Assembly (NCBI GenBank): GCA_964503145.1
Contig: CAZCYV010000015.1
Coordinates: 20,378-84,377, forward strand
Source of the DNA: an uncultured Anaerolinea sp.
GTDB lineage: Bacteria > Chloroflexota > Anaerolineae > Anaerolineales > UBA4823
Length of the DNA: 64,000 nt
Direction: 5' to 3'
Shown one piece after another: positions 2,148 through 49,936 of this stretch. A program made the position numbers and the translations under genes. The notes below the pieces were generated by a model that did no database searches, had not been told where the DNA came from, and saw only the letters and a list, made by a program, of their open reading frames with translations. Position 1 is the first letter of the stretch. Each line of letters begins with the position of its first letter.

Positions 2148-2909
2148 ATGCGCAAACCATTCGTAGCAGGCAACTGGAAGATGTTCAAGACGGTGGCAGA
2201 GGCGCGTCACTTAGTATCAGAGCTGGTGCCGGGTTTGCAGGCCATCCAGGGGGTAGAGAAAGTGATCTGCCCGCCTTTCACGTCGCTGCTGGCAGTGGCG
2301 GCTCTGCTGGAAGGGACAGACATTGGCCTGGGCGCCCAGAACATGCATTGGGAGCTTTCCGGCGCGTTCACCGGCGAGATCTCGCCGACGATGCTGGCCG
2401 AGTTGTGCCATTACGTCATCCTGGGCCATTCAGAGCGGCGTACCTATTTCGGCGAGACCGACGAGATGGTCAACCGTAAGGTGCAGGCTGCGCTGGCTCA
2501 TGAACTGACCCCCATCGTGTGTGTGGGCGAAACGCTGGCCGAAAACGAGGCTGGGCGCACCGCAGAAGTGGTGGCGCGTCAGGTGCGGTTGGCTCTGGCG
2601 GATGTGAAGCTGTCGGCAGAGGGTGTCGCTCCCTTCGTTATTGCCTACGAGCCGGTTTGGGCAATCGGCACCGGGCGGGCAGCCACCGCCGAGGGCGCAG
2701 CGCAGGTGGTGCGCGAGGTGATCCGACCAACGGTTGCGGAGTTGTTTGGCGCAGCGACAGCACAAGCGGTGCGCGTGCTATACGGAGGTTCGGTGAACGC
2801 CAAGAACGCTGCCGAGTTCTTCGCCGAGCCTGAGATCGATGGGGCGCTGGTAGGCGGCGCCAGCCTGAAAGCGTCGGAATTCACGCAAATCGTGCAGGCC
2901 GCTGCCTGA
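2148..2909 (+). CDS. tpiA: Triosephosphate isomerase
   Basis: MRKPFVAGNWKMFKT start, ILGHSERR, VCVGE and AYEPVWAIGTG motifs. I trimmed the listed ORF (1899) to the ATG at 2148, 15 nt after the kinase stop. Confidence 0.95.
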   Translation: MRKPFVAGNWKMFKTVAEARHLVSELVPGLQAIQGVEKVICPPFTSLLAVAALLEGTDIGLGAQNMHWELSGAFTGEISPTMLAELCHYVILGHSERRTYFGETDEMVNRKVQAALAHELTPIVCVGETLAENEAGRTAEVVARQVRLALADVKLSAEGVAPFVIAYEPVWAIGTGRAATAEGAAQVVREVIRPTVAELFGAATAQAVRVLYGGSVNAKNAAEFFAEPEIDGALVGGASLKASEFTQIVQAAA

Positions 2910-2960
2910 AGTTTATGCGTGTAGGGACAGTTTTGGCCGCGCCCTGGCTGGAGGTGAAGG

Positions 2961-3722
2961 GTGCCCGGGGCGCTGCATAGCCTGGGGTGGCTCCTGCTCT
3001 CGCTGGGGCCACTTCTGTTTTTGCAGCGCCTGCTGCACCGCCAGGTGCAGACCTTATTTCTGTTGATCACCCGGCGCAGTGATCTTTCCATTGCCCTGTT
3101 CGCGTTGCTGTTCTTCCCCGGCGTACTGCTGCACGAAGGTAGCCATTACCTGGCGGCTAAGTTGCTGCGGGTGCGCACCGGGCGCTTTTCGATCATTCCA
3201 CGCCCCTTGCCCAACGGGCGATTACAGATGGGCTATGTCGAGACCGCCGCGTCGGATTGGGCGCGAGATACGCTGATCGGAGCCGCGCCGCTGATCACAG
3301 GCGGGTTGTTCGTGGCCTATGCCGGGTTGGCCCGATTGGGGCTTTTAGAGCTGTGGCAAATGTGGAAATCCAGCGGCTGGGAGGCGGCGTTAGCGATGCT
3401 CCCTCAGATCACGGCAGGATCCGATTTTTGGGTGTGGTTCTACCTGACGCTGGTGGTGAGTAGCACGATGCTGCCTTCAGCGTCTGATCGGCGCGCTTGG
3501 CTGCCGCTGGGACTGACCGTCCTGGCGCTGCTGGGCGCCAGTCTGTTAGCGGGGATAGGGCCGTGGCTGGAGCAACACCTGGCGCCGGTTTTAGAGGCGC
3601 TGTTTCTGTCGGCAGCGGTTGTGTTTGCCATTAGCGCAGGGGCGCATTTGTTGTTGGTGATGCCCTTATGGTTGATTACCAGGTCGTTGATGAGATGGTT
3701 GAAGTTGGAGATAATATCCTGA
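2961..3722 (+). CDS. Polytopic membrane protein with an HExxH motif (possible membrane metalloprotease)
   Basis: GTG start. Several hydrophobic helices. LLHEGSHYLAAKLL contains HEGSH (HExxH). I recognise no further family signature. Confidence 0.5.
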   Translation: MPGALHSLGWLLLSLGPLLFLQRLLHRQVQTLFLLITRRSDLSIALFALLFFPGVLLHEGSHYLAAKLLRVRTGRFSIIPRPLPNGRLQMGYVETAASDWARDTLIGAAPLITGGLFVAYAGLARLGLLELWQMWKSSGWEAALAMLPQITAGSDFWVWFYLTLVVSSTMLPSASDRRAWLPLGLTVLALLGASLLAGIGPWLEQHLAPVLEALFLSAAVVFAISAGAHLLLVMPLWLITRSLMRWLKLEIIS

Positions 3723-3833
3723 CGCGGACGGCTAATCCTCCTGACATACGAGGCTGTGAAAGGGGCTTTTACGCGGATTGCCGGCGGTGCCAGAAGGGCG
3801 CTCTACGGAGTCGCTCTCTCGACGAAAACAAGT

Positions 3834-4124
3834 TCAGTTCTCGATGAACTCCCCGCCGCTGACCTCGCGGCTGAGCAGCCGCCGGTTGGCGTCGTAGGTC
3901 AGTTCGACCTGGATGCGCTGGAAGCAGCGCCCTTCACCGATCAACACTTTGCGGCAAAAGTAGATGGCTCTGCCGCTCTCGTCGTACTCCAGGCTCAGGT
4001 CGTTGTACAGGTTCACCCGCGTGCGGATTATCTCGCCACAGCGGTGACAACGCACTTCGATCCAGTCCACCGGCGTGGCGGATTTGGATGCGAAAAAGCG
4101 GGTCAATTTCTCCAACAAGCTCAT
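3834..4124 (-). CDS. Small hypothetical protein (96 aa) with CxxC plus two further Cys
   Basis: Trimmed to the internal ATG at 4124 (MSLLEKLTRFF...). Contains VRCHRCGEII ... YFCRKV ... GRCFQ. No recognised family. Confidence 0.4.
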   Translation of the reverse strand: MSLLEKLTRFFASKSATPVDWIEVRCHRCGEIIRTRVNLYNDLSLEYDESGRAIYFCRKVLIGEGRCFQRIQVELTYDANRRLLSREVSGGEFIEN

Positions 4125-4216
4125 CGTAACGCCCTCCGGAAAAATTATAGCATCACCTGCGTCGCTTTCCGATACAGTTATCCGCTGAAATCCCCTCCGA
4201 CGCAGCGACGCCTTAT

Positions 4217-4225
4217 TGGTATAAT
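4217..4225 (+). promoter_or_regulatory. Candidate extended -10 promoter element TGgTATAAT
   Basis: Exact TGnTATAAT on the + strand, about 190 nt upstream of uvrA. No good -35. Assignment to uvrA is an inference. Confidence 0.3.
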
Positions 4226-4269
4226 CCTTCTTCGCGATTGAGGCTGAGCGACCCAACCTGAAACAAATG

Positions 4270-4278
4270 TGCTATAAT
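4270..4278 (+). promoter_or_regulatory. Candidate extended -10 promoter element TGcTATAAT
   Basis: Second exact TGnTATAAT, 135 nt upstream of the uvrA ATG. Confidence 0.35.
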
Positions 4279-4412
4279 CGCGCTCTGGTCTGTCTGCATC
4301 ATCGCTCACTCCAGACCAACCCAATGCTGATGCTAAACATGATACGCTGCCTGGGCGCCGCAAGCCAGCAGCCGATTATTATTAACCGTAAGAGTGATCA
4401 CGGATTGTACCT

Positions 4413-7349
4413 ATGTCTCAAAACGTTATTCGCGTCGTCGGAGCGCGCGAGCACAACCTGAAGAACATCACCGTCGAGATCCCGCGCGACAAATTTGTCG
4501 TCATCACCGGCCTCTCTGGCTCAGGCAAGTCCTCGCTGGCGTTCGACACCATCTTTGCCGAGGGCCAGCGGCGCTATGTCGAGTCGCTCTCGGCTTACGC
4601 TCGCCAGTTCCTGGGACAGATGGAGAAGCCCGATGTGGATTACATCGAAGGGCTCTCGCCAGCCGTCTCTATCGACCAGAAGGGCGCCTCGCACAACCCG
4701 CGTTCCACCGTAGGCACGGTGACTGAAATCTACGATTACCTGCGTTTGCTCTTTGCCCGCGCCGGTATTCCCCATTGCCCCGTCTGCGGCCGGGAAGTCG
4801 CTCGCCAGTCGGCTCAGGAGATCGTCGAAGAGATCGAGCGCTTGCCCGAAGGCTCCCGACTGCTCATCCTGTCCCCGCTGGTGCGCGGCCGCAAGGGCAC
4901 CCATCAGGCTGTGCTGGAGGAGATCCGCAAGGCCGGCTTCGTGCGCGCCCGCGTGGATGGCGTCGTCCACGAGCTGGAAGAGGATATCCAGATGGATCGC
5001 TACAAAATCCACACTATCGAGGCGGTAGTCGATCGCCTGGTGATCCGCCGCTACGAGGACGAAAGCGAGGCGAACGCTGCCCGTTCGCGCCTGACCGATT
5101 CGGTCGAGACTGCGCTCAAGTTTGGCGAGGGCTACCTGACTGTGCACATTCTGCCCTCCCCAACGGCTGTTGAAGCGAGAGGAGATGGAGGCGAGGGGAG
5201 CGAGGGCGAACCCCAGGGCCGTGACTTGTATTTCTCCGAACACCTGGCCTGCCCGGAGCACGGCTCGGTGCTGCCGGAGATCGAACCGCGCACTTTCTCC
5301 TTCAACACCCCGCACGGCGCCTGTCCCGATTGCCAGGGACTGGGCGGCAAGCTGGAGATCGACCCTGATCTGCTCATCCCCGACCGGGAGCTGTCGCTGA
5401 ACGAGGGCGCCATCGTTGCCAGCGAGTGGCGCGGCCCGCGCGAGGAGGGCGGTTATTACTGGCAGGCGCTGGAGGCGGTAGCTCGCCACTATCACATTGA
5501 TCTGGACGCGCCGGTCAAGGACATCCCACCGGAAAAGCTCGACCTGTTGCTTTACGGTACCCGCGGCCAGGAAGTCACGGTGCATTACCGAAACAAGGAT
5601 GGGCGTCAGTCCACCTTCCGCATGGCTTTCGAGGGGGTGATCGGCAACCTGCAGCGGCGCTACAACGAGACCGGCTCGGAATATATGCGCGAGCGCATCG
5701 CCGAGTTGATGAGCGAGCAGATTTGTCCCACCTGCAACGGGGCGCGCCTGCGCAAGGAAGCCCTGGCGGTGACCGTGGATGGTGTCAACATCGTCGAAGT
5801 CACCCAGTGGCCGGTGATCCGCACACTGGAATGGGCGCGGCGGCTGAGTGGACCCGACACCCCGCTCACCCCGCGTCAGCAGGCCATCTCCGAGCGCATC
5901 CTGAAGGAAATCCTGGCACGCCTGGGTTTCCTGGTCGATGTCGGCCTGGATTACCTGACCCTGCAGCGCTCAGCTTCGACCCTTTCGGGCGGCGAGGCGC
6001 AGCGCATCCGCCTGGCGACGCAGATCGGTTCGCGTCTGATGGGTGTGCTCTACGTGCTTGATGAGCCGTCGATTGGCCTGCACCCGCGCGATAACACTCG
6101 CCTGCTCAACACTTTGATGGGCCTGCGCGACCTGGGCAACACTGTCCTGGTGGTGGAGCACGACACCGAGACTATCCGCTCCGCCGACTGGATCGTGGAC
6201 TTAGGGCCGCTGGCAGGCGAACACGGGGGTAAGGTGGTCGCCGAAGGCACGGTGGAGGATATCCTCAATGCGCCTGAGTCGCTCACTGGCGCCTACCTCT
6301 CCGGCAAGCTACGCGTGCCGATCCCGAAGACGCGCCGCAGCGGCAACGGCAAGGTGCTGAGCATCCTGGGAGCGCGCGAGAACAACTTGAAGAACATCGA
6401 TGTGCACATCCCGCTGGGGCGGCTGGTGTGCATCACGGGCGTCTCTGGCTCGGGCAAGTCCACCTTGATGGTGGAGATCCTATACAAGGCACTGGCGCGC
6501 GCCCTGAACGGCGCCCACACTCAACCGGGACAGCATGATCGCATCCTGGGGCTGGAGCACCTGGATAAGATCATCAATATCGACCAGTCACCCATTGGGC
6601 GCACGCCGCGCTCGAACCCAGGCACCTACACCGGCCTTTTCGACCTGATCCGCAACCTGTTCGCTGAGCTGCCGGAGAGCAAGGTGCGCGGCTACAAACC
6701 GGGGCGCTTCTCGTTCAACGTGCACGGTGGGCGCTGCGAGGCCTGCCAGGGCCAGGGGCAATTGCGCATCGAGATGCAGTTCCTGCCGGATGTGTATGTG
6801 CCCTGTGACGTGTGCCACGGAGCGCGCTTCAACCGCGAGACTTTGCAGGTGCGCTTCAAGGACCTGAACATCGCCGATGTGCTCGACCTGACCGTGGACG
6901 CCGCGCTGGAGTTGTTTGGCGCTTTCCCGCCCATGGTCAGCCGTTTGCAGACGCTGCAGGACGTCGGGCTGGGCTACATCCGTATCGGGCAACCCGCGCC
7001 GACGCTCTCCGGCGGCGAGGCGCAGCGGGTCAAGCTGGCTAAGGAGCTTTCCCGCCGCGCTACCGGCCGCACGCTGTACGTGCTGGATGAGCCTTCGGTA
7101 GGCCTGCACGCCGCCGATGTGCACAAGCTGATCGAGGTCTTGCAGCGTCTGGTGGACGCGGGCAACAGCGTGCTGATCATCGAGCACAACCTGGACATCA
7201 TCAAGGTGGCGGATTACATCATCGACCTGGGTCCGGAGGGCGGCGACCGCGGCGGGGAGATCGTCGTCGAAGGCACTCCCGAAGAAGTGTGCGCTACAGA
7301 CCGTTCCTTCACCGGGCAGCACCTGCGGCCGTTCATCTGCGAGAGGTAG
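4413..7349 (+). CDS. uvrA: Excinuclease ABC subunit A
   Basis: 978 aa. Two ABC ATPase modules ([12 protein letters not shown] and [10 protein letters not shown] Walker A; LSGGEAQR signatures twice). Zinc-finger Cys pairs ([25 protein letters not shown]). Confidence 0.97.
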
Positions 7350-9070: not shown

Positions 9071-10083
9071 GCGGGCTGAGGCGCTCTCTTCCTTCCCGCG
9101 CCTTGCGGCTGGGGCTGGCGCTGGCGATCAGCGGGCTGACGGTCTATCTGGCTTTGCGCCAGGTGGATCTGGTCCAGGTGGGGGAAGTGCTCGAACAGGC
9201 GGACTGGCGTTTCGCTATGCTGGGCGTCTTGAGTGGGACGCTGGGGTTGGGATTCAAGATCGGGCGCTGGCTGTTGTTGCTTCGAGAGCGACCAGACTCC
9301 CACCGGGCGGGCGACAACGGCTTTTGGCAGTGGAAGCCGGCTGCCGCTTCGTTTTTGTCTGCGCAGTTAATCAACAATTTTTACCCCTTGCGTGTGGGCG
9401 AGATCGGTCGGGTGGCGGTGGTGGGCCGAGCCGGCGCAGGCTATGCTTTCGTGGCGGGCACGATCGCTGTGGAGAAGGTGTTCGACCTGGCTGCCTTTGG
9501 CGCGCTGGTGGGGTTGCTGCTTGCCAACCTGGGCGTCAGCGACCTGTTTGGTGAAGCGGCGTATTGGCTGGCGGGCCTTGGGCTGGTTGCGCTGGTAGGG
9601 GCGCTTTGGGCGGCTGCGCAACAGGAGCGACTGGCAGGCCGAGCGCTGGCCTGGCTGCGCTGGCTGCCCGGTGAATGGGATGTCTGGTTGGCACGCCAGA
9701 TCCGTCAGGCGCTTACCGGACTGGGTGCATTGCGCCGCCCTGGCAGCCTGGCCGCTCTGGCGGCGCTGACGGCGTTGATCTGGGGGCTGGCGTGGTGGAC
9801 CAATCAGCTTGTGGCTCAGGCCCTGGGTCTGAGCCTGCCACCGAGCGCTGCGCTGTTGGTGCTGGTGGCTTTGCAAATTGGCATCTCGTTGCCGTCATTG
9901 CCAGGGCGCCTGGGCATCTTCGAGTATGTTTGTATCCTGGCGCTGCGAAGCTTTGGAATCGACCCGGAAATCGGGCTGAGTTACGGTATACTTCTTCACG
10001 TTGTGGTTTACCTGCCGATCATCTTTGCTGGGTTGCCGGCTGTGTGGTTGTGGCCGCTAGCCCAAGTCCAACCGACCAGATGA
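9067..10083 (+). CDS. Lysyl-phosphatidylglycerol-synthase-TM-region-like (UPF0104/flippase-like) membrane protein
   Basis: GTG start overlapping the gmd stop by 4 nt. About 8 hydrophobic helices. The N-terminal pattern [19 protein letters not shown]...LEQADW is typical of that family. Family call is from memory. Confidence 0.55.
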
Positions 10084-10121
10084 GATCGGTATGAGGTCTT
10101 TAGGAGATCGCTGAACGAAGC

Positions 10122-10607
10122 ATGCATTCCGTGTTATTCGTTTGTACGGCAAATATCTGTCGCTCGCCCATGGCCATGGGGCTCTTGCGCTCCAAAGTAG
10201 AAACGGAAGCGGACGAATGGCGGATCGACTCGGCGGGGATATGGGCGCAACGCGGGCTGCCTGCGGCGCAATATACGCGTGAGGTGTTGCGAGCGCGCGG
10301 CATTGATCTGGAGGACTATCGCTCCAAGCCGCTCTCGCGCGAGATGCTGGAGGATTTCAATCTGATCCTGGCCATGGAAAACAATCATCGCGAGGCGCTG
10401 CGCGCCGCTTTTCCCCAACATGCAGGAAAAATATTCCTGCTCAGCGAGATGATCGACCGATCTAACGATGTGGTCGATCCAGTGGGTGGACCGCTGGCCG
10501 ATTTCGAAGACACGGCGCGCGAGATCGAAACGATCCTGGAACAGGGTTATGAGCGAATCTACAGGCTGGCCGCGGACGACATCCCTGCCGAGCAATCCCA
10601 AATCTGA
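10122..10607 (+). CDS. Low-molecular-weight protein-tyrosine phosphatase
   Basis: VLFVCTANICRSPMA (CX5R(S) P-loop) and a DP motif near VVDPVGG. Confidence 0.85.
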   Translation: MHSVLFVCTANICRSPMAMGLLRSKVETEADEWRIDSAGIWAQRGLPAAQYTREVLRARGIDLEDYRSKPLSREMLEDFNLILAMENNHREALRAAFPQHAGKIFLLSEMIDRSNDVVDPVGGPLADFEDTAREIETILEQGYERIYRLAADDIPAEQSQI

Positions 10608-16803: not shown

Positions 16804-17364
16804 CTATTCTTTGTTGGTCAGGGTGATTTCTTCAATCTTATGGGTCAACTCTTCGATCTGAGCCTGCAGGCGGTCCAAGTCCTCTTGGGTGGGAAGCTGG
16901 CGTTGGCGCAGGTAATTCTCCAGGGTGGCTTCGTCCATGGCAGCCATGCGGTTGATCTGGCGAGCGCCTTGTTGGATCATCTTGTCGATCAGGTTGCGGG
17001 CCTCTTTTTCGGAAATTTCCCCCTGGTGGACCAGCGCCTGGATACGGTTCTTGATCTCTTCATCGATTTGATGCCAGAAGCTGGCAGGCGAAGCCAGGCT
17101 GCGTTGGAAGGCAGACAGGCGGTCGCTGCCGGCGCGAATCAGCCCGGTCAGAAACGAATTAGTCAGCAGACCACTTTGCTTCTTTTCCTGTTCCAGGATG
17201 ATCTGGGTGAGGGTGACGGCGGTTAGATCTTCGCCCGAGGCGTGATCGACTACCTGGATTTCGGCGCCCTGACGGATCAGGTCGGCGACGCCCTCCAGGG
17301 TGATATATTGCTTGGCTTCGGTGTTGTATAGTTTGCGATTGGGATAACGCTTAATAATGATCAT
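16804..17364 (-). CDS. phaR: PHA synthesis repressor PhaR-like DNA-binding protein
   Basis: MIIIKRYPNRKLYNTEAKQYITLEGVADLIRQGAEIQVVDHASGEDLTAVTLTQIILEQE matches the PHB/PHA accumulation regulator N-terminal DNA-binding domain. C-terminal coiled-coil. Confidence 0.8.
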   Translation of the reverse strand: MIIIKRYPNRKLYNTEAKQYITLEGVADLIRQGAEIQVVDHASGEDLTAVTLTQIILEQEKKQSGLLTNSFLTGLIRAGSDRLSAFQRSLASPASFWHQIDEEIKNRIQALVHQGEISEKEARNLIDKMIQQGARQINRMAAMDEATLENYLRQRQLPTQEDLDRLQAQIEELTHKIEEITLTNKE

Positions 17365-17526
17365 GACATTGTTCTCTACATGTTTCTGCCCGAACAGACC
17401 TTCAAAGCCTGAATTTGCCAGCTCGCGCCCTATTATACGCCATCTTTGGTTAAAAAGTATTCTCCCCTTCCTGGTGTACAGGGAAGGGGAGAAGCGCATA
17501 TACATTTAGAGCCGCGTACGTGGATC

Positions 17527-17904
17527 TTACTGGGCTTTCTTCAATTCATCGACCTTCTTGGAAAGGGCGACGATCTTCTCGCTGAGGGCGTCGATGTCAG
17601 CCTTGGAAGGCACGTTCATGCGCTCCAGGACGCTCTCGACACGCTTGGTGATCTCGTCCTCAGCCTTCTCGGCGTCTTTCTTGCGGCGATCCATAATTTC
17701 GCGCACCAGCTTGCGGCCATCTTTTTCGGCGATCTCGCCGCGCTCGATCAGCTTATCGACAAAATCTTCGATCTCTTCCTTGCCCAACGCGATCGCGCCG
17801 ATGCCAGCCAGCAGCACCTTGCGCACTGCCTCGAGCAGGGGGTTCTGCTCTTCTTTGCCATTGGTTTGTTCTACAACTTCGGTAGCCTTCGTCTTGGTAG
17901 CCAT
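17527..17904 (-). CDS. Phasin-like granule-associated protein
   Basis: The ATG at 17904 has a strong AAGGAGAT SD 6 nt upstream. Highly charged helical 125-aa protein. LLAGIGAIALGKEEIEDFVDKLIERGEIAEKDGRKLVREIMDR is typical of the phasin/PHA-regulator COG. Confidence 0.65.
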   Translation of the reverse strand: MATKTKATEVVEQTNGKEEQNPLLEAVRKVLLAGIGAIALGKEEIEDFVDKLIERGEIAEKDGRKLVREIMDRRKKDAEKAEDEITKRVESVLERMNVPSKADIDALSEKIVALSKKVDELKKAQ

Positions 17905-18125
17905 TGTCTTATCTCCTTTTTTCATCCTGTAGTATGGATTGATCACATCGTTTATGACGCGCTGCGTCGTAAGAGAGTATAACACACCGCGTCATGAAAG
18001 TCAAGAGTTTGAGGAAAGCCGGAATGGCTTTCCTTGACTGGACATCACTTCTCAACTATACTATTTCCACCAGGCAAAATCCCATTCCATGGCACAAAAT
18101 CTCGACCGGATGCGGAGGAAAAACA

Positions 18126-18557
18126 ATGGCAGTCTTCCGAGATGCAGAGCAATTTTACGCATGTGTGGGGGAATTGATGGATCGGGCCAAGAAAGATCCC
18201 CAAGTTGGACCGAAAATTGCAAAATCCGGGATCATCATCCAGTTTCGCTACACTGATCCTGAGGCGGTCACCACGGTCAACGCTAAGGACAAGCCAACAC
18301 AGCCCGGCGCTTTCTGCGATGTGTTGCACGGGCCATGTGACCTGAAGCCGGATGTGATCATGACAATGAAAGCCGACATCGCGCATGCATTCTGGCATGG
18401 GAAGGTCAACCTGGTCTCAGCGCTAGCAAAGAAGGACATTGTCGCCCAAGGGCCTATCCCCAAAATTCTGAAGCTGCTGCCGGCGGTGGAGCCGTTGTAC
18501 AAAGTTTATCCGGTGCTGTTGCGCGAGAAAGGGTATCCGGAGTTGGTATTGAAATAA
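18126..18557 (+). CDS. SCP2 sterol/lipid-carrier domain protein
   Basis: Trimmed to MAVFRDAEQFY. The pattern ...IIIQFRYTDPEAVTTVNAKD...ADIAHAFWHGKVNLVSALAKKDIVAQGP resembles the SCP2 fold C-terminal helix (G.l......g.i...G). Confidence 0.65.
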   Translation: MAVFRDAEQFYACVGELMDRAKKDPQVGPKIAKSGIIIQFRYTDPEAVTTVNAKDKPTQPGAFCDVLHGPCDLKPDVIMTMKADIAHAFWHGKVNLVSALAKKDIVAQGPIPKILKLLPAVEPLYKVYPVLLREKGYPELVLK

Positions 18558-18566: not shown

Positions 18567-20765
18567 ATGGTGATGAAGAGCGTCTTGGTTGTTCACCTGG
18601 GTTCCGGTGAAGAGAGCAGCTTGGTAGAGTTCCAGGGGCAGCAAATTGAAATCAGGCGACTTGGCTGTGCTGGCGACGCCGACTTGGCGCGCCGGTGGAT
18701 CATCGAGCACGACGGCAGAGTGGACGCGATCGGGCTGGAAGGACTGCCGGCGCGACTGCAACTGGGCAACGCGCGCCGGACACACGAGACTGGCGCGGCA
18801 CTAGCTTCCCTGGCGCAGATCACGCCGGTGGTTGATGGCAGCGGCGTGCGCGCCGGCCTGGAGCGTTGGGGCGTCACCCTGGCAGACCGCGCCCAACCGG
18901 GCATTTTCAGCCAGAAGCGCATCTTGCTGGTGCCTGGGTTGAACCACGAGGGGCTAGCGCAGGCATTGGGGCGACACAGTCGCGAGGTGCGCTACGCCGA
19001 CTTGGTGGTGTATTTTGCCATGCCGGATTTACCTGGGGTGGGCCGCCGGATGACGTTGGAACAAGTGGCTGGCCCGACTCTGGAACAACTCAAGGATGCG
19101 CCCTTCCGACGGATCTTCCCTCAACCAGGGCGTCCTGGGACTCCGCGGGCGGAGAAGCCTTTCAATTGGGCAGATGTATTGGCCGGGGACATTGGCGCCA
19201 TCCGCCGCTATGCTCCCTTGCGCCTGGCGCACAAGACGGTGGTGGTCAATTCGGCCAGCGAGGAAGACCTGGAAGACTTGCGCCAGCGAGGGGTTTCCAT
19301 CGCAGTAGTGATGATCCCGGATTTGAGAGGCGATGCTCATCGAAGAGGCTGGGGCGAGGCGACGATCGAGGCGATACTGGCCTCTTTGCGTCCTGATCCG
19401 CTGGCGGCGCCGAGCGAGGACACCTATCTCGACCTAATCGCCGATCTGGACTGGAAACCGGATATCCGCTACTTGCAGCCCGGTGAAGCGGGGATCAACC
19501 GTTTCGCCTTCGTGATCCATCCATTGGATGTGAGTTACATTCACAAGCACCGTTGGTTCCGTTGGACGCGGTATTTACCAGACGCGATCATCGAACCGGT
19601 GGCGGCCATGTTCCCGCCGATTTACCTTTCACGCATCACTGGCGGTCGTTCACCGACCACTGGCCAGCGCATCGAAGGTTATCTTTTTTCGCTTGGGGCG
19701 ACGCCGCGCCAGATGATGAGCCGCGGCGAGCGCTTTACCTATAAGCGCCTGAACCTGGCAGCCAGGATGGCCGAGCGGCGTGGGGCGCGCATCATGGGGT
19801 TAGGGGCATTCACCAGCGTGGTCGGCGATGCAGGGATCACCGTGGCGCATGAGGCGGATATCGCCATCACCAGCGGCAACAGCCTGACGGTCGCGGCGAC
19901 GCTGGAAGCTGCCAAGCAGGCGGTAATCAAGATGGGCGTCTCCGATCTCTCTCGCGGTAGAGCCATGGTGATCGGCGCAACCGGTTCGATTGGCTCGGTT
20001 TGCGCTCGGCTATTGGCCCAGGCGATCTATGACGTGGTGCTGATCTCCATTGAGCCTGAACGCCTGATTGATCTCAAGCGGCGCATCCTGGAGGAAACAC
20101 CCGGCGCGCACGTGACGATTGGCATCCGCGCGGATGAGATGGTCGGCGATTGCGACCTGATTGTGACCGCAACTTCGGCATTTGGCCAGCGGGTGCTGGA
20201 TATCACGCGTTGCAAACCGGGGGCGGTGATCTGCGATGTCGCTCGGCCGCCAGACATCAGCCCGGAAGAGGCTGCGCTGCGCCCGGATGTGTTGGTGATC
20301 GAGAGCGGCGAGGTGCTCATCCCTGGCGATATCGATTTCGGCTACGATATCGGCTTGCCCCCAAAGATTGCCTACGCCTGCCTGGCGGAGACGGCGCTGC
20401 TGGCAATGGAGGGGCGCTTCGAGGATTACACCTTAGGTCGAAACATCTCGCTAGAGCGCGTCAAAGAGATTTACCGTTTGTTCAAAAAACATCAGTTTCA
20501 ATTGGCGGGGTTGCGGTCGTTTGGGAAATATATTACCGATGAAGATGTAGAGGCGAAGCGGCGCCTGGCCGATGAGTTGCGCCGAGACCCCGAGCGGTTT
20601 GCGCAACTGAAGCTCGAGGCGGGTGAAAAGCTGGCCGCCATTCCGCCCATGGCGAAAGGGGTGCGCACGGGCGGCGCCGGTTGGCAAACCTGGATGGGGC
20701 TTGGACTGGCATTAGGCGCGTTGAGCTGGCTCTGGTATCGTCGGCGGGTCAACAAAACACAATAA
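18567..20765 (+). CDS. Acyl-ACP reductase (AAR)-family protein with ~300-aa N-terminal extension and C-terminal TM anchor
   Basis: Residues ~310-650 align by eye to cyanobacterial AAR. Matches are [50 protein letters not shown] (Rossmann) and [14 protein letters not shown] (AAR has FACFAEAML with the catalytic Cys). The C-terminus [19 protein letters not shown] is hydrophobic. Confidence 0.75.
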
Positions 20766-20795: not shown

Positions 20796-21875
20796 ATGTC
20801 TGAAAAGCGAGTCATTTTAGTCACCGGGGTGGCGAGTTACTGGGGGGCGCAGGTCGCATCGCGCTTGATCGGCGACGCCTCATCGGAGAAGGATTATCAT
20901 GTGATCGGGCTGGATTCTCAACCGCCCGATGAAGCTTTGAAAGGGCTGGATTTTGTGCAGGCCGACATCCGCAACCCGCTGCTCGTCGAACTGCTGCGCT
21001 CGGAAAAAGTGCATACAGTGTGCCATCTGGTCTTCAGCGAGAGTGTGCGCGCTACCGAAGCCGCTTTCGATATCAACGTTATGGGGACGATGAAAGTGCT
21101 AGGCGCTTGCGCCGAAGCCGGGGTGCGCAAGGTGGTGTTGAAGAGCAGTATGACCGTCTATGGGGCCAATCCGAGCAATCCGGCGTTCATCACCGAACAG
21201 CAGCCTTTGCAAGCCAATCGCGCTTATGGAACGACGCGCAACCTGGTGGAGATCGAAGCTTTTTGCAACGGTTTTCGACGCCAGGTTCCGGAGATGGTGC
21301 TGACCATCCTGCGCTTTGCCAGCATCATTGGGCCGCAAGCCGACACACCGATGACGCGTTTCCTGAAGCGGCCGATGGCGCCGGTTTTGCTGGGCTTCGA
21401 TCCGCTGATGCAGGTGATCCATGAAAAGGATGTGGTTGAGGCGTTGGTGCATGCCATCCACAACGACGTGCCTGGTGTGTTCAATGTGGCTGCCGAGGGG
21501 GTCTTACCGCTCAGCCGCCTGATGGCGCTGGCGGCCAAGATCCCTGTGCCGGTGTTTCACCTTTTTGCTTACTGGGGTGCAGACCTGGCAGGAGCGGTGG
21601 GCGCATCGGTCGAGCGCCACTGGCCGATCGAAATGGATTATCTGAAATACCCATGGGTGGGCGACCTGGCCAAAATGCGCGAGGACCTGGGTTTCGTGCC
21701 GCGTTATACGGCAGAGGAAGCACTGCGAGAGTTCGCCGGCCAGCAACGCCTGCGCCGTTATATGCCCGAATCGGCAGCCCTGGCTTATGACGAGGAACGT
21801 TTACGAGACACCATCGAGCGCCGTAAGCGTGCGCGAGAGATCGGCGGCGACCCTGTGGAGGAGGTGGAAGCATGA
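20796..21875 (+). CDS. Extended-SDR NAD-dependent epimerase/dehydratase family protein
   Basis: ILVTGVASYWGAQVASRL (Rossmann) and a VLKSSMTVYG block. The putative catalytic tetrad position reads AYGTTR (YxxxR rather than YxxxK, by-eye alignment). Confidence 0.8.
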   Translation: MSEKRVILVTGVASYWGAQVASRLIGDASSEKDYHVIGLDSQPPDEALKGLDFVQADIRNPLLVELLRSEKVHTVCHLVFSESVRATEAAFDINVMGTMKVLGACAEAGVRKVVLKSSMTVYGANPSNPAFITEQQPLQANRAYGTTRNLVEIEAFCNGFRRQVPEMVLTILRFASIIGPQADTPMTRFLKRPMAPVLLGFDPLMQVIHEKDVVEALVHAIHNDVPGVFNVAAEGVLPLSRLMALAAKIPVPVFHLFAYWGADLAGAVGASVERHWPIEMDYLKYPWVGDLAKMREDLGFVPRYTAEEALREFAGQQRLRRYMPESAALAYDEERLRDTIERRKRAREIGGDPVEEVEA

Positions 21876-23074
21876 GCGACGAAACTCGCCCCGTGGAAGC
21901 ATTTGCAGAAGAGGAACCGTTGCCTGAAGTTTATACAACCGAGGAAGCTTCAGCGTCGCAAGCGCCTTCGGAGAGCATCCAAGAGCAGCCCGAAGAGGCC
22001 TCCGGCGAGGAATTGCGACGGCGCCTGATCGAGGAGCTGGATGCCCTGGTCGAGCGCTTGCAGGCGATTACACCGGGTTATGAGCCGCCCGCTTTTACGC
22101 CCCAGAGGTTGCTCGATTTGGTGAAAAAGAACCTGGGCCGCTTCTCACCCGAAATGGGGCTGGCAGTGTTGGAAAAGTTGCGCGCTTCAATCAGCCAGGA
22201 TCTGCTGGATGTGGATACCTGGAAGGGCATCTGGTACATGCTCAACTATTCGTTGGACTATCAGGCGGATCTGCTCAAGCGTCGCTTGCGGGGCGAATAC
22301 GAAACTGACGAGTGGGGCTTTGATCCCGAAATCCTGCAAGCCGTGACGCCCTTCCTGAATTTCATGTACCGCACTTATTGGCGAGTGGAAACAACAGGGA
22401 TGGAAAACATCCCCGATGAGGGTCGGGGGCTGCTGGTGTGCAACCATTCTGGCCAGCTTCCCTGGGATGGGGCAATGGTCGGCACGGCGGTCTATAACGA
22501 GCATCCCGCGCAGCGGCTGGTGCGCACCTTGTACGCCACCTGGTTCCCAACCCTGCCCTTTTTCTCGGCGCTGTTCACCAAGTTAGGCCAGGTGCTGGCC
22601 ACTGAGGAGAATGGCGTGCGCCTTCTGGAAAAGGATGAACTGGTAGCTGTCTTTCCGGAGGGCTACAAGGGGGTGGGCAAACTGTTCAAGGAGCGCTATC
22701 GGTTGGCGCGCTTTGGGCGGGGCGGCTTTGTGCGCATGGCGCTCAAGACCCGATCTCCAATGATCCCGGTCTCGATCGTCGGCGCTGAGGAGACCTACAT
22801 TTCCCTGGCGAAATCGGACTTCATCGCCCGGCTGATCGGGTTTCCTTACTTTCCTATCTCGATCACCTGGCCCTGGTTTGGCCCGTTGGGTTTTGTGCCT
22901 CTGCCGACCAAGTGGTACATCGATTTTGGCGAGCCGATCGATACCGACGGCTATGGGCCTGGAGCAGCGAACAATCTGATGCTGGTGTCGCAGCTCACGG
23001 ACCAGACGCGCAACGTGATCCAGGAGATGATCTATTCCAGACTGGCGAGCCGGCGGTCGATTTTCTTTGGGTAA
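21872..23074 (+). CDS. PlsC/LPLAT-type lysophospholipid acyltransferase with acidic N-terminal extension
   Basis: ATGA overlap with the upstream SDR gene. LLVCNHSGQLPWDG (variant of the NHx4D block), VFPEGYKG (FPEG block), PMIPVSIVGAEE (block IV). Confidence 0.8.
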   Translation: MSDETRPVEAFAEEEPLPEVYTTEEASASQAPSESIQEQPEEASGEELRRRLIEELDALVERLQAITPGYEPPAFTPQRLLDLVKKNLGRFSPEMGLAVLEKLRASISQDLLDVDTWKGIWYMLNYSLDYQADLLKRRLRGEYETDEWGFDPEILQAVTPFLNFMYRTYWRVETTGMENIPDEGRGLLVCNHSGQLPWDGAMVGTAVYNEHPAQRLVRTLYATWFPTLPFFSALFTKLGQVLATEENGVRLLEKDELVAVFPEGYKGVGKLFKERYRLARFGRGGFVRMALKTRSPMIPVSIVGAEETYISLAKSDFIARLIGFPYFPISITWPWFGPLGFVPLPTKWYIDFGEPIDTDGYGPGAANNLMLVSQLTDQTRNVIQEMIYSRLASRRSIFFG

Positions 23075-23121
23075 ATTACAGCCTCTTTCAGGATGCAAAT
23101 GCAATCTCTTACAGGTGACTG

Positions 23122-23532
23122 ATGACCGTGTATTCGGATGCCCATACGCTCAACAAGGCCTTACAAACTCTGTTTGCAAAGGTGGGGCAAGATCCGCGGG
23201 CAGCGCAGACGGTGTCGGATTCGCGGCTGATCTTGCGCCTGCGCATCACTGCCCCGGAGGCAGATGTGATCGTGAACGGTAGGAAGAGACCGCCCGAAAT
23301 TACTTATGGGGAGACGAGTCTGCGCCCCGATCTGGAGATCGAATTGAACGCCAGCGCATTGCATAGGATTTTGTTGGGGGAGTTAAGGCTTAGCAGCGCA
23401 ATAGCAGGGCGGCAGCTTGTGGTGCGCGGCCCGATCTTCAGGACCTTCGTTTTCGAAGAGATCTTTCACAGCGCCCAAAGGTTCTATCCGGGCGTACTGG
23501 CAGAAATGGGTTTGGACGGATCGGCCAAATGA
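23122..23532 (+). CDS. Second SCP2 lipid-carrier domain protein
   Basis: 136 aa. ...DLEIELNASALHRILLGELRLSSAIAGRQLVVRGP matches the SCP2 C-terminal pattern. Confidence 0.6.
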   Translation: MTVYSDAHTLNKALQTLFAKVGQDPRAAQTVSDSRLILRLRITAPEADVIVNGRKRPPEITYGETSLRPDLEIELNASALHRILLGELRLSSAIAGRQLVVRGPIFRTFVFEEIFHSAQRFYPGVLAEMGLDGSAK

Positions 23533-23548
23533 TCCACTCTGGCAAGAA

Positions 23549-23575
23549 GGGCCGCACTGCGGTCCTTTTTGTTTT
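23549..23575 (+). terminator. Rho-independent terminator candidate
   Basis: GGGCCGC-act-GCGGTCC hairpin (one G:U) followed by TTTTTGTTTT, 17 nt after the SCP2 stop. Confidence 0.5.
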
Positions 23576-23576
23576 G

Positions 23577-24836
23577 CTAAACTGCGCCTTTGTTGAGCCC
23601 TTCCAGCGCCAACTCTAACTCTGCCAGGGCGCGGTCAAGCTGACATAACGGGGTATTTCGCCGCCGGGCGCCGCAACGCGGCGTGTTGGCCTCCAGCACC
23701 CGCCGAATCACACTGGGGTCATAGTCGGAGTTGACGATCTCGGCCATTTCCTCGATGACCAGGCGTCGGCTTATGGGGATGCCATGGCGCGCCAGAATCG
23801 CCTTGTACATCGGGTAATCGGTCGCCAGATCGACTGTCACCGACTCGAAGCCATGGCGGGCGACGATCAGCCGGGCCGAGTAGCGCATAATGTTGTAGAA
23901 GAACATCTGATAGTCTTTGGGTTTCGGTTCGATCAGGATGATGTCCACTTCTGGGTGCGCCCTGCGGAGCTGCTTGACGTGATAGTTTAGCCCGGAATGG
24001 AGCATGATGCGGAACACCTGATTGGCTACCGACTGTACGCCTTTTTCGCTCAGGTATGCACTATCGGGGCCCAGCGAGGGGAGCATCCTTTTGTCCTGGT
24101 TGTCGAAGGGCACCAAAGGGTTGATACACACGACCAGAGTGGCGCCCTTCTCGATTGCCAGATCGATACTGGCGTTGCCACGCGTGCCGCCGTCGATATA
24201 TTCATTTTCACCGATGCGCACAGGCTTATAAACAATAGGCAGCGCCGAGGATGCAGCTACCGCTTGCGAGATGGGAGCATCCAGGTGCCCAGGTCCAAAG
24301 ATCGCCCGCTGCCCGCTGTCCAGGTCGGTAGCGATGATGTACAACTGTCGCTGTAGTTGGCTGAAATCGTTGGTGTAGCCTAGATCGCGTAACCCCTGGC
24401 GCACGAAGCGCTCCAGCCCGATTGGATCATAAAAGCCGGCTGGGAGAGCTTCGCTGAGCGACCAGAACAGGTCAAACAGGGTCATATCGCCGATGTGGCG
24501 CAGGTAATGCGACCAGGCATTCACCAGCTTGACCGGCAGCTTCATCCCCCATTTGAAATAGGATTGCCAGTTCAGGTTGAATAGATGCTTACGCTCGATT
24601 GTGCGTCCCACCGGATGAGAGCCATGGATTACCTGAAGCATCTCCTCTGGGCTGAGGCCATTGGCTATAAACGTCGCGACGAGCGAGCCGGCGCTGGTGC
24701 CGACATAGATATCAAAATCATTTACGGTTCGGTCGATCAGTAGATCGTCGATGGCGCGCAGGGCGCCGATTTCATACACCGCCCCGGTCAGACCTCCACC
24801 AGCCAGTACAAGCGCAGTCTTACCTTTCTTTGCCAT
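23577..24836 (-). CDS. Patatin-like phospholipase
   Basis: LVLAGGGLTGAVYEIGAL (oxyanion GGGxxG), YVGTSAGS (GxSxG), YIDGGTRGN (DGG catalytic Asp). Confidence 0.9.
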   Translation of the reverse strand: MAKKGKTALVLAGGGLTGAVYEIGALRAIDDLLIDRTVNDFDIYVGTSAGSLVATFIANGLSPEEMLQVIHGSHPVGRTIERKHLFNLNWQSYFKWGMKLPVKLVNAWSHYLRHIGDMTLFDLFWSLSEALPAGFYDPIGLERFVRQGLRDLGYTNDFSQLQRQLYIIATDLDSGQRAIFGPGHLDAPISQAVAASSALPIVYKPVRIGENEYIDGGTRGNASIDLAIEKGATLVVCINPLVPFDNQDKRMLPSLGPDSAYLSEKGVQSVANQVFRIMLHSGLNYHVKQLRRAHPEVDIILIEPKPKDYQMFFYNIMRYSARLIVARHGFESVTVDLATDYPMYKAILARHGIPISRRLVIEEMAEIVNSDYDPSVIRRVLEANTPRCGARRRNTPLCQLDRALAELELALEGLNKGAV

Positions 24837-41576: not shown

Positions 41577-44500
41577 TCAATCTTTGCTCAGGGCATAGAA
41601 ATACAGCCCTGGCAGGATGGGGTTGCTGTACCAGCCGCGCACCCAGCGCTGCTGATAGCGCCGTCCCAGCGACTGGTACATCAGGATTACTGGCGCCTGC
41701 TCGTAGAACAAGCGGTTGAACTCGGCGTAGACCTGTGTCCGCCGCGCCGGGTCTTGCTCGGCTACGCCGCGGTCGATGATCTCTTTAAAGCGCCGGGTGA
41801 GGTCTGCTGGCAAGTTGAGTTGGCTGCCGAAATTGACCAGGGTATAGGGGACAACCCAGTTATGCGGGTCATGGATGTCCTCGATCCAACTGCCGGTGTA
41901 AATCGGCAGGCGGTCTTCGGCGTAGCGATTCCAATAGTCGTCGCTTTCCAGCGCCGCCGCCTCGACTTTGAACTTCGGGTTCAGCCGGGTCAGTTCGCGC
42001 TGGAAGATCTCGGCGATCTTCTGGCGGGGCAGGCTCCCCTGGGGATAAGGCAGTTTGAGGGCGAAGCCAACGTCCCAGACGCTCGGCCCGCCAAAGCTGG
42101 CCTGGCGAAATTCATCCTGGCAGCGCGCCGGGTCATACTCGTAATGCGGCGCGTCAGCCTCATAGCCGATCATCCCCGGCAACATCACTGTGAACGAACG
42201 CTCCCCCTCGCCTAACATGACCTCCTGCAGGTAACTCTCATAATAGAAGCAGAACTGGAACGCCCGGCGCACGTGAATATTGGAGAAGAACTCTGGCGGG
42301 ACGCCCTTACCGTCCAGTTTGGCGCTGCCGATCAGGTCGTTGCCATCGCGGGCGTTGATCTGCCAGTTCATGAAGATGTCGTAGTCGCGGCTGGCGACGG
42401 GAAAGCCTCGGATTACCTCCAGCGGCCCCAGCAGGTTGCTGCTAAACTGGCATTGTTGATCACTGAGCTGGCAGACCGCGCTGGTCAGGCGGTCCAACTC
42501 AGGCCATTCGGTGTTGTTGGCAGTATGGATCGAGTCGGTCTCGCCGTTGCGCAATGCCGCCAGGCGGGCGTCGAACTCCCGCTGATAGCGAATGACCACC
42601 GTCTTCAGCGCTGGAGCGCCCACTGGCCCGTCAGGCCAGGCAGGTTCGCGGCGCCAGTAACTCTCGTTGGCCTTCAGCACGATCTGTTCCCCCGGCGTCC
42701 AGTTTTCCAGGCGATAGGGGCCGGTGCCCATCGCCCCGGCACCCAGCGGGGTCTTGTTTAAATCCGCGGCGCTGCGTCCGTAATAGTTCTGCCAGGTAGC
42801 GCAGTCGCCATCCCAGCCGCCGTTGGCGATTGTCCAGGCCTTGGAGCGGATGCTGCCCCAGCCATTCGCCAGAGTGACCAGAAATGGCGCCCAGGGTTGC
42901 GCCAGACGGAAGATCACCACCCCGCTGGCGGGATCGGCGTAGATGGCCTGCTGCAGCCGCTGGCACACCTGCAGTAGCCGCCCGGGATCGGCTTTCTTCA
43001 GCCCGGCGGGGTCGTCTATCAGCGCCGGATCGATCAGCGCCGCCACGTCGTATACCCCCACCCCAAAGATCGGCTCGGTCAGCAGCCACATCGGCGAATG
43101 CGATCCGCCCTGCAGGATGTTGCGCTGGAAGGTGTAAACCACGTCCTGAGGAGTCAACGGGCTGCCGTCGTGGAAAGTCACCCCGGGGCGGATCTTGAAG
43201 GTGTAGGTCAGACCATCTGCCGAGATGCCGCCGTTCTCGCGGCTGGGCACTTCCAACGCAAGCTGAGGCACGAGCCGGTTGGGATCATCCCGATAAAAGA
43301 AGACCAGGGTATCGTAAACGTTTTGGATGATCTGTAGCCCCGAAACCTCATAATCCAGCGCCGGGTCCAGTGTGTCTGGCTCGCCGGTATTGATATGCAC
43401 GTAGGTATGCGGGTCTTTGGAATGCACCACCGGTAACGTCGGGATGGGGGTGTTCGTTGGCGGGGCAGGCGGCAGCTGTGTGGAAACAGCGGGCGTCTCG
43501 CTGATTTGCAGACCCAGCGACTGCGGGGTGGTCGCCGCCGGCGGGGTCGGCGTCCCGTCCCCGCGCAGGCCGAGCAACGCCAGCGTCCCGCCCCCCAGGG
43601 TGAGACACAGGATCGCCAGCACCGCTACGCCTCCCAATCCGATCCATAGCCAGGGCGGGCGACGGGCGGCAGCTTTCGGAGCGGTTACAGGCCGGGAGAC
43701 TGGCGGCGCGACCTCCCTCACCGCTGCTGCCGAAATCGCCGCCGGACTGGGCGAAACCAGCACCGGCGCGGCCGCCGAAGGCAGGCACGCCTGCAGCGCA
43801 TCTTTGAACTCGGCCACGCTCTGAAAGCGCTGCGCCGGGTCAAGCGCCAGGGCTTTCTCGATGGCTAGCCCCAGGCGCGGCGGCAGGCGCGGGTTGAGCT
43901 GCCCTGGCGGCTTCAACTGCTCGCCTGCGGCGCGCTGCACGCTCTCCAATGGCTCTTTCCGGGTGACCAACTTGTACAGGGTGGCTCCCAGGGCATAGAT
44001 GTCGGAGCGAGCGTCGGTGCGCCCCAGCCCGTACTGCTCCGGCGGCGCGTAGCCCGGGGTGAGCGCCCGCGCCCCCAGGGTGGTCTTCAGCGTCGGGTCG
44101 GCCATCTTCACCAGGCCGAAATCCACCAGCATCGCTTTGCCTTCGGGGGTGATGCGGATGTTGGAAGGCTTGATATCGCGGTGCAGCACGGGCGGCTGGC
44201 GGTTATGCATATAGATCAGCGCATCGGCTACCTGCAGCATCCACCCCAGGCACTGCTCCAGCGGCAGCGCCTCGCTCCGGCGCAGCAGCGAAGCCAGGTC
44301 TTCCCCCTCCACGAAGTCCATCACCAGGTACTGCCCCTGGTCGGGGATCGAGAAATGGTCTGTCACCCGCGGCAGGTTGGGGTGCGAAAGGTTCGCCAGC
44401 ACCGTCGCCTCGCGGGCGAACTGGCGCCGCGCCTCGGCGGAGGTGTTCAGGTTCTCTTTGACCGCGCAGGGGCGCTGAAGGTTGATGTCCCAGGCTTTGT

Positions 44501-44723: not shown

Positions 44724-44764
44724 CCGGTTTCTTCCGAGTCGCCCTCCAACCGCGCGTCTGCGCC

Positions 44765-45424: not shown

Positions 45425-45648
45425 GATATGCTTAATTCTAGCATAAACACGCCGCCTTGGGCATCCAATCATGCCCCCAACGGTTAAACTTCACACGTAA
45501 GGCACTCCAGGCTGATCGCCTTCAACGGCGTGGCGTAAAGAAGCTTATCCTGATCGCTATGCCACTTTTACGGAACAAAATGCGCATTTGGGTTAAAATT
45601 AGGGTGAGCAGATCCATACCCACATCCACCTCGAGCGGAGGATCAGGA

Positions 45649-46776: not shown

Positions 46777-46794
46777 GACGACCCCGACATTGGC

Positions 46795-46899
46795 ATGAGC
46801 CTGCTGCTGCTCATCCTGTGCTGCCTGGGGAGCCTGCTGGCGCTGGCGGTTGCCGTCCTCGCCATCTGGGTGTTCCACGGGCGCAATTCCGATTCGTGA
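46795..46899 (+). CDS. Unlisted 34-aa hydrophobic micro-ORF (MSLLLLILCCLGSLLALAVAVLAIWVFHGRNSDS)
   Basis: ATG..TGA read directly. It is below the ORF-track length cutoff. About 90% G/C at third positions, like neighbouring genes. One clear TM helix followed by a basic/polar tail. Confidence 0.4.
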   Translation: MSLLLLILCCLGSLLALAVAVLAIWVFHGRNSDS

Positions 46900-46908
46900 G
46901 GCCTCCCG

Positions 46909-49807: not shown

Positions 49808-49884
49808 GCTTCGGAAGGTATCATAAGATGATTTGTCTGGGGAAAAATTAGATGCGTTTGTCCTGGAATTTCATATCCTGGACG

Positions 49885-49913
49885 TTGACGGATACGCCGT
49901 TTGCGGGTAGAAT
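49885..49913 (+). promoter_or_regulatory. Promoter of tRNA-Ala(GGC)
   Basis: TTGACG-17 nt-TAGAAT, ending 23 nt before the tRNA 5' end. Confidence 0.6.
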
Positions 49914-49936
49914 AAGTCACTGTCACGGAAGCCTCT

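Follow-up and report, generated by a model that had tools for sequence, protein, structure and literature searches.

A two-module AAR/PigE-type thioester reductase with a predicted membrane tail and lipid-gene neighbours in an uncultured Anaerolinea sp.

Introduction

Acyl-ACP reductase (AAR)-type enzymes are valued as an entry to the biological production of alkanes, aldehydes and alcohols, and the known enzymes are small soluble cyanobacterial proteins or domains of pigment and nonribosomal peptide synthetase (NRPS) pathways. In cyanobacterial AAR, as described in the available part of PMC7089970, residues 162-GATGDIG-168 form the dinucleotide loop, and C294 carries the acyl-enzyme thioester of a ping-pong mechanism. 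PigE reduces a thioester, and the equivalent cysteine is conserved as Cys296 (accessible text of PMC8341465); the terminal amidation domain (TAD) is described as AAR-like (excerpted text of 10.1101/2024.10.28.620694). Here, we analyze a gene at positions 18567-20765 of a 64,000-nucleotide stretch of DNA (the window) from contig CAZCYV010000015.1 of an uncultured Anaerolinea sp. of the Chloroflexota (assembly GCA_964503145.1). A first-pass annotation had called the product an 'AAR homolog outside cyanobacteria'; the homology stands, and its occurrence outside cyanobacteria is not in itself new, as PigE, TAD and TamH were already known as such homologues.

The chemistry and the fold are known, and what is new is the build, in which a pseudo-AAR module is joined to an active module and a tail, together with the size of the family and the AAR-like fold of a protein family labelled 'quinate 5-dehydrogenase'. 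Full-text searches, whose coverage did not extend to subscription journals, found no paper on this fusion. The branch that the gene represents is large and uncharacterised; its build includes a second, degenerate copy of the fold and, within one clade, a membrane tail, and links to lipid-binding and neutral-lipid genes recur. On balance, we lean towards a membrane-anchored fatty acyl-thioester reductase that would make aldehyde for neutral or ether lipids.

Results

Overall architecture of the fusion protein

The open reading frame (ORF) at 18567-20765 on the forward strand encodes 732 aa, as first described; because homologues begin at ATG 18573 (the third codon, giving 730 aa), this is likely the true start. 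The protein has three parts: an N-terminal module (N-module), a catalytic reductase module, and a C-terminal segment of basic helices, a short motif and a hydrophobic tail.

18567..20765, +, whole gene, 732 aa (likely start ATG 18573, 730 aa)
18567..19481, +, N-module, residues 1-305: two-lobed alpha/beta, AAR-like predicted fold, without catalytic Cys or Gly-rich loop
19494..20537, +, catalytic AAR/PigE-type thioester reductase module, residues 310-657
19968..19988, +, dinucleotide-binding loop GATGSIG, residues 468-474, aligned to AAR 162-GATGDIG-168
20379..20381, +, Cys605, predicted acyl-enzyme nucleophile, aligned to AAR C294 and the PigE Cys
20538..20639, +, two basic helices of the whole-protein model, residues 658-691
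20640..20663, +, conserved motif IPPMAKGV, residues 692-699
20682..20762, +, predicted tail anchor: hydrophobic residues 706-724 and basic end 725-732

The model of the whole protein reached a pLDDT of 90.4 and a pTM of 0.82, and this high pTM suggests that the N-module packs in a fixed arrangement against the catalytic module. Homologues carry the public names 'serine carboxypeptidase', in records of metagenome-assembled genomes (MAGs) at NCBI, and 'predicted amino acid dehydrogenase', at JGI. The former finds no support in any of our results; the latter we take to be the name of COG5322, presumably the AAR/PigE-type thioester reductase superfamily.

The catalytic module is related to PigE and AAR

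The first-pass annotation had aligned the C-terminal ~340 aa with cyanobacterial AAR by eye, and this alignment proved right over nearly the whole length. HMMER against the Protein Data Bank (PDB) placed residues 350-649 on positions 38-339 of the 341-347-aa AAR chains 6jzq/6jzu (E 1e-14), and the NCBIfam AAR model TIGR04058 aligned residues 363-645 with model positions 49-335 of 339 (5.2e-19, 68.8 bits; 70.8 bits in a whole-genome search). The NCBIfam PigE model NF053554 matched residues 364-671 at model positions 56-360 of 837 (1.6e-54, 185.5 bits), and residues 364-664 fell on the N-terminal reductase part of PigE 4ppm (E 2.1e-30). The curated cut-offs are 449.7 bits for TIGR04058 and 850 bits for NF053554. 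TAD structures matched the catalytic module weakly (E 0.003), far behind PigE and AAR. Homology of the COG5322 type is significant across the whole reductase module, and by these scores the protein is nearer to the reductase domain of PigE than to AAR.

In the HMMER alignment, GATGSIG (residues 468-474), which has the AAR dinucleotide-loop pattern GX(1-3)GX(1-2)G, lies opposite GATGDIG of AAR, and Cys605 lies opposite the cysteine of AAR 'facfae', namely C294. Both features had been picked out at first pass and are confirmed by this alignment. A search of species genomes with a 15-sequence alignment as the query gave 600 matched stretches, 586 of which encode a relative, and the loci counted in this paper are the best 80 of these related stretches. 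In this set, which was selected via two other conserved motifs and therefore favours active forms, Cys605 is kept in 79 of 80 loci, the remaining one being a cut contig that does not cover the position; the loop region (residues 466-476) is matched in 79, the missing one being another cut contig, with substitutions such as GGTGSIG, GATGAIG and GATGSIA in some loci; and T435 and G437 of the T-x-G motif are kept in 79, with one locus cut. Judged by sequence, the C-terminal half belongs to the AAR family of thioester reductases and has both the predicted catalytic Cys and the dinucleotide loop.

The protein is not an AAR orthologue, since its score lies far under the cut-off and no aldehyde-deformylating oxygenase (ADO) was found in the genome: the ADO model TIGR04059 had no match in the window's own 97.6%-complete genome, with the control Synechococcus elongatus positive. 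An alkane pathway was rejected on the same finding. The Pfam scan detected no aminotransferase domain in the protein. TIGR04058 also gave matches below its cut-off in the control genomes of Thermus thermophilus, Deinococcus radiodurans and Methanocaldococcus jannaschii, so AAR-like proteins exist in well-studied organisms.

The N-module belongs to a large free-standing family with an AAR-like predicted fold

The N-terminal ~300 aa had been described as an unrecognised domain. This holds in so far as no named family was found: residues 1-310 matched no Pfam model (best E 0.1, a chance match to NinH) and no NCBIfam model. It does not hold as a claim of orphan status, because a free-standing family exists and the predicted fold is AAR-like. 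The same genome encodes a free-standing 302-aa paralogue of the N-module (28% identity, E 3.3e-28), which matched no Pfam or NCBIfam model either, and with this paralogue as the query 7999 of 8000 scored candidates matched at E <= 0.001. By these matches, the N-module is a member of a huge family of free-standing ~300-aa proteins, which are ~80% identical within Chloroflexota and are named 'hypothetical protein' or, once among 120 listed, 'quinate 5-dehydrogenase'. The Atlas clusters nearest to the N-module are of the same free-standing kind and bear the latter label. Models of real quinate and shikimate dehydrogenases matched neither the N-module nor the paralogue, and the label is without support here.

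A model of the N-module from 50 sequences had a pLDDT of 91.5 and a pTM of 0.91. Foldseek, which the first-pass annotation had proposed for these residues, ranked TAD first (E 4.4e-6, TM 0.44-0.48), and over the whole domain the predicted structure was most like AAR, TAD being the second VIA match. G91 and L220 never vary in a set of 34 N-modules, both fused and free, and D145, K223 and E268 are each found in at least 90% of the set. With the cysteine and the glycine loop lost, the N-module would be unable to carry out thioester reduction. It reads as a very old, degenerate AAR-fold domain, whose proposed homology to the C-terminal module rests on the predicted fold.

The locus of the paralogue (L002:163-2421; own genome, G000:C8, minus strand) continues on the same strand with a MobA-like NTP transferase and a PAP2 phosphatase, and a branched-chain aminotransferase-like ORF, labelled from its sequence by eye, is divergent there. 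From the neighbours at this locus, the free-standing family may have a part in a head-group or lipid-phosphate pathway.

The C-terminal tail

In the whole-protein model, the C-terminus forms helices 658-673 and 675-691, a low-confidence loop and helix 705-731, and residues 706-724 are hydrophobic and followed by RRR. With a hydrophobic tail defined as a 17-aa stretch of the last 45 aa that has a Kyte-Doolittle value of at least 1.2, such a segment is found in 112 of 120 near homologues, which agrees with the C-terminal membrane anchor noted at first pass. Only 11 of 68 two-module cluster representatives carry it, so the tail is a feature of the nearer clade. The conserved single C-terminal hydrophobic helix is predicted to be a tail anchor, and 'membrane-localised aldehyde production', which the first-pass annotation drew from the tail and the chemistry, may be reasonably inferred from the two. 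The IPPxAKGV motif that precedes the tail persists in tail-less gammaproteobacterial forms (L064-L077).

Family spread, builds and tree

With the whole protein as the query, 3262 of 8000 scored candidates matched at E <= 0.001, and 3472 cluster representatives match the whole protein, 639 of them at 1e-30 or better. The best 80 loci come mostly from Chloroflexota (Anaerolineae, Caldilineae, Ardenticatenaceae, Chloroflexaceae, Roseiflexus, Oscillochloris and Herpetosiphon), and the others include Myxococcota, Gammaproteobacteria (Marinobacter, 41%), Acidobacteriota, 'Clostridia' MAGs and Bdellovibrionota. Of 151 genomes sampled evenly across the phylum, 16 have the two-module form and another 13 have the catalytic module alone.

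In a quick midpoint-rooted tree of 123 catalytic modules, with SH-aLRT as the only measure of support, the two-module build extends over most of the tree (76 rows). Beside the group of the window protein stands a catalytic-only clade of Gammaproteobacteria and Thermoanaerobaculia (support 99), whose position looks like loss of the N-module. No N-like gene was found within the fetched flanks of 11 catalytic-only loci. In 10 genomes of the same order that hold both gene kinds, the two are located at different places. A long-branched sister clade (P0134, P0144, P0149 and P0171) has lost both the Cys and the Gly loop and has kept both modules and the tail, and judged by these losses its members are probably pseudoenzymes. 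Another catalytic-only clade contains fusions to SRPBCC (START-like) lipid-binding domains (P0258, P0260, P0248, P0251 and P0265); two of these also carry a PilZ domain, and one carries an HTH domain.

Gene neighbourhood

In the window, the fusion gene is part of a same-strand run (+) in which an SCP2-like gene is followed by a 9-base gap, the fusion, a 30-base gap, a gene of the short-chain dehydrogenase/reductase (SDR) family, a 4-base overlap, a PlsC gene and a second SCP2-like gene. The flanking genes are listed below, with the number of the 80 loci in which such a neighbour is present.

16804..17505, -, PhaR-like PHB_acc_N regulator, divergent, upstream (11 loci)
17527..17985, -, phasin, divergent, upstream (11 loci)
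18126..18557, +, first SCP2-like gene, 18.6 bits (cut-off 21.3), GGAGGA ribosome-binding site, ends 9 bases upstream of the fusion (16-17 loci)
20796..21875, +, epimerase-type extended SDR, atypical, usual Tyr/Lys pair not conserved (12 loci, downstream of the fusion)
21872..23074, +, PlsC-family acyltransferase, start overlaps the SDR stop by 4 bases (12 loci)
23122..23532, +, second SCP2-like gene, 21.2 bits against a cut-off of 21.3 (17 loci)
23577..24836, -, patatin-like lipase, convergent with the operon (6 loci)

A DUF1997 gene is also located upstream and divergent, and such a neighbour is seen in 3 of the 80 loci. A promoter-like site at 18034-18062 precedes the first SCP2-like gene; it is weak, since 5 such sites were found against 3.7 expected. 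In the SDR, YxxxR replaces YxxxK and the Tyr is not conserved among 10 orthologues, and by these residues the protein may be a non-catalytic 'atypical' SDR. The genome also encodes WS/DGAT (wax-ester synthase/diacylglycerol acyltransferase), on another contig. The PhaC_N (class I/II) and class III models detected no polyhydroxyalkanoate (PHA) synthase in this 97.6%-complete genome; given the phasin pair, the phasins may therefore coat another kind of inclusion. PF07993 was tried as a marker for other fatty acyl reductases and discarded as useless, as it matched in all 14 control genomes. Beginning at about 42 kb (42000-62000), the G+C content of the window is raised to 0.62-0.68, compared with about 0.56-0.59 before.

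In 7 of the related loci, the gene directly upstream of the fusion is a homologue of the first SCP2-like gene (67-85% identity). WS/DGAT directly follows the fusion in L017 (fusion 2265-4451, WS/DGAT 4511-5851), L020 (7001-9187 and 9250-10590) and G083 (22410-24587 and 24659-25417 on C47). In L080, from a MAG labelled Clostridia, an NAD_binding_4 ('male sterility', fatty acyl reductase (FAR)-type) gene at 9458-10582 directly follows the two-module gene; the Clostridia label is doubtful because a TonB gene is nearby. In L082, a lipid kinase, a DUF3419 gene, a hydrolase and an AMP-ligase surround the fusion. The Marinobacter, Herpetosiphon and delta-proteobacterial loci showed nothing lipid-related beside the fusion, and beyond the lipid set no conserved neighbours were found in the 80 loci.

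Discussion

Proposed function

On the basis of the sequence homology, conserved motifs, predicted fold, spread of the family and gene context computed here, we infer which substrate and cofactor are used, which way the reaction runs, that the protein sits at the membrane and what the N-module does, as follows. If the enzyme works as AAR does, a thioester, either acyl-ACP or acyl-CoA and most likely of a long-chain fatty acid, would pass its acyl group to Cys605 and the carrier would leave, and NAD(P)H at the GATGSIG loop would then reduce the thioester to the free aldehyde. The N-module would most likely serve as a built-in non-catalytic partner in scaffolding, ligand binding or regulation, while the basic helices, the IPPxAKGV motif and the terminal hydrophobic helix would tie the enzyme to the membrane or to the surface of lipid bodies. 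The neighbouring genes would then use this aldehyde to make neutral lipids of the wax-ester type or ether lipids. Wax-ester-type neutral lipids as its fate fit the WS/DGAT, phasin and patatin neighbours, and ether lipids as a second fate fit the neighbours as well: a reductase, a PlsC-type acyltransferase and an SDR are the enzyme set of the acyl/alkyl-dihydroxyacetone phosphate (DHAP) route. For wax esters, the available text of PMC12542760 describes their use as mat biomarkers of Roseiflexus-type bacteria.

A bolder picture, which we put forward tentatively and hold to be possible rather than probable, is that of a self-contained 'pseudo-dimer' of two AAR folds on membranes or lipid bodies, in which the dead N-module would gate or receive the aldehyde and the family would be the source of fatty aldehyde or alcohol for neutral lipids such as wax esters in Chloroflexota, Roseiflexus-type bacteria among them. 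In this picture, the thousands of free-standing proteins labelled 'quinate 5-dehydrogenase' would likewise be AAR-fold proteins of new function. The N-module would here take the place of a separate partner, which is ADO for AAR and an aminotransferase for PigE or glutamyl-tRNA reductase (GluTR).

Points against and alternative explanations

Several results weigh against a fatty acyl-thioester reductase that acts in lipid synthesis with a membrane tail and an AAR-fold partner. Lipid-related context was found in only about a quarter of the loci, and about 56 of 80 have no lipid gene in view beside the fusion, many of these being on short contigs. In the phylum sample, WS/DGAT occurs in only 2 of 16 two-module genomes, and 8 of 10 genomes with WS/DGAT lack any match to the protein; because of these counts coupling to wax-ester synthase is not general, and a general co-occurrence across the phylum was rejected at an overlap of 2 genomes. 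The SDR lacks the conserved Tyr/Lys pair, so a simple second step from aldehyde to alcohol is doubtful. The window protein's own Trp/Gly-rich tail scores 1.05, just below the threshold of 1.2. No N-like gene was detectable with our query in any of five catalytic-only genomes (5/5), and as these close relatives have the catalytic module only, the N-module is possibly dispensable. In addition, a global profile-profile comparison of the N- and C-terminal modules was not significant (probability 0.1%), and a profile of the 34 N-modules retrieved nothing from the PDB, its two rows, GroEL (0.28) and a PTS component (0.61), being at chance level. A permissive local hhalign run was co-linear but weak and likewise not significant (E 0.016, probability 2.8%); it pairs 'TPVvDG' of the N-module with 'IpVTtGN' of the C-module, 'aD..V...GKT..D' with 'aDlIV...kPGaVIcD', A265 with Cys605, and E268 with the invariant E608, and the glycine loop is not retained.

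Part of this evidence bears on the substrate. The same chemistry could act on a non-fatty thioester, a specialised-metabolite or amino-acyl intermediate held on a carrier as in PigE, TamH and TAD, with the lipid neighbours incidental. The higher score to the PigE reductase than to AAR (185.5 vs 68.8 bits), the majority of loci without conserved lipid neighbours and an NRPS-like gene nearby in four loci would agree with this. We nevertheless judge it rather unlikely: this operon contains no carrier protein, aminotransferase or NRPS/polyketide synthase gene, the membrane tail suits a hydrophobic product, and unrelated lineages repeatedly show partners that bind lipids or act on them, namely SCP2, SRPBCC, PlsC, WS/DGAT, FAR-type and patatin. 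A different alternative concerns the N-module, which might be an enzyme itself, for example a nucleotide-binding one that turns aldehyde into alcohol, so that the fusion would be a two-step enzyme. Free-standing relatives of the N-module form a very large family with strong conservation (7999 of 8000 candidates; ~80% identity within Chloroflexota), G91 is invariant and D145, K223 and E268 reach at least 90% across fused and free forms, the neighbouring SDR looks catalytically impaired, so that no enzyme stands out for the second reduction, and D145 follows the second strand (141-143) of a Rossmann-like lobe in the model, which we take to be the place where dinucleotide-binding folds carry the ribose-binding acid. 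Set against these points are the lack of a Gly-rich loop and of a cysteine at the aligned positions, the failure to find a sequence relative of known function in Pfam, NCBIfam or the PDB, and close relatives of the catalytic module that have no N-module at all, and we regard a catalytic N-module as fairly improbable.

It is less likely still that the protein works mainly in reverse, detoxifying lipid aldehydes as an acylating aldehyde dehydrogenase, or that it is a regulator that senses acyl-thioester pools at the membrane. The sister clade without Cys and Gly loop shows that non-catalytic roles exist in the family, and other relatives carry PilZ domains; however, the window copy retains every catalytic motif tested, and the characterised AAR and PigE are described, in the parts of the sources available, only as makers of aldehydes from thioesters. 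As for a relative of shikimate/quinate dehydrogenase or GluTR, the sole Pfam match is indeed PF01488 (Shikimate_DH, E 6.5e-5, residues 456-571), and the source names of the N-module family include 'quinate 5-dehydrogenase'. The PF01488 match covers the Rossmann part only and its 23.5 bits fall short of the cut-off (24.3), hemA reaches 23.5 bits where 209.55 are required and shikimate dehydrogenase NF009201 reaches 19.6 where 235 are required, the N-module matches no shikimate or quinate dehydrogenase model, and the alignments with AAR and PigE span the entire module and take in the Cys. This identity, now extremely improbable, was rejected at 20-27 bits vs 69 for AAR and 185 for PigE; a place in the shikimate/quinate family without the acyl-enzyme Cys, which the first-pass annotation had named as the case that would overturn its proposal, does not apply, as those models score in this low range and the Cys is present.

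Based on the results presented above, we return to the membrane-anchored fatty acyl-thioester reductase. If this reading is true, the protein is a candidate enzyme for the supply of fatty aldehyde or alcohol in Chloroflexota and several other phyla, and the misleading names 'serine carboxypeptidase', 'predicted amino acid dehydrogenase' and 'quinate 5-dehydrogenase' would be corrected. On the same condition, the big family labelled 'quinate 5-dehydrogenase', for which Pfam has no model, would gain a first structural handle.

Comparison with known systems

Cyanobacterial AAR, which uses NADPH to reduce acyl-ACP or acyl-CoA to aldehyde, has in common with the window protein the dinucleotide loop, the position of the catalytic Cys and, with the catalytic module, the three-part fold. 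It differs in being a soluble single-module protein of ~340 aa (341), whereas the window protein has 732 aa with a degenerate module and a tail; moreover, AAR works with ADO, which was not found in the window genome, and the window protein comes from Chloroflexota rather than from cyanobacteria. The reductase domain of PigE, of the prodigiosin pathway, is the best sequence match, and the Cys is common to both, but the window protein at 185.5 bits does not reach the 850-bit cut-off of NF053554. PigE, TamH and KecF are fused to a pyridoxal phosphate (PLP) aminotransferase and, as far as the available source texts describe them, belong to pigment or alkaloid clusters, whereas the window protein has a pseudo-AAR partner and a lipid context. 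The TAD of the carmabin NRPS (PDB 9e4s and others) has an AAR-like two-domain fold with an invariant Cys, according to the part of the source at hand; it lies at the end of an NRPS module and its substrate is an intermediate bound to a carrier, whereas the N-module lacks a Cys at the aligned place. Finally, the free-standing 'quinate 5-dehydrogenase' proteins, which stand alone and have neither a Pfam domain nor a tested function, have G91, D145, K223 and E268 in common with the N-module of the fusion.

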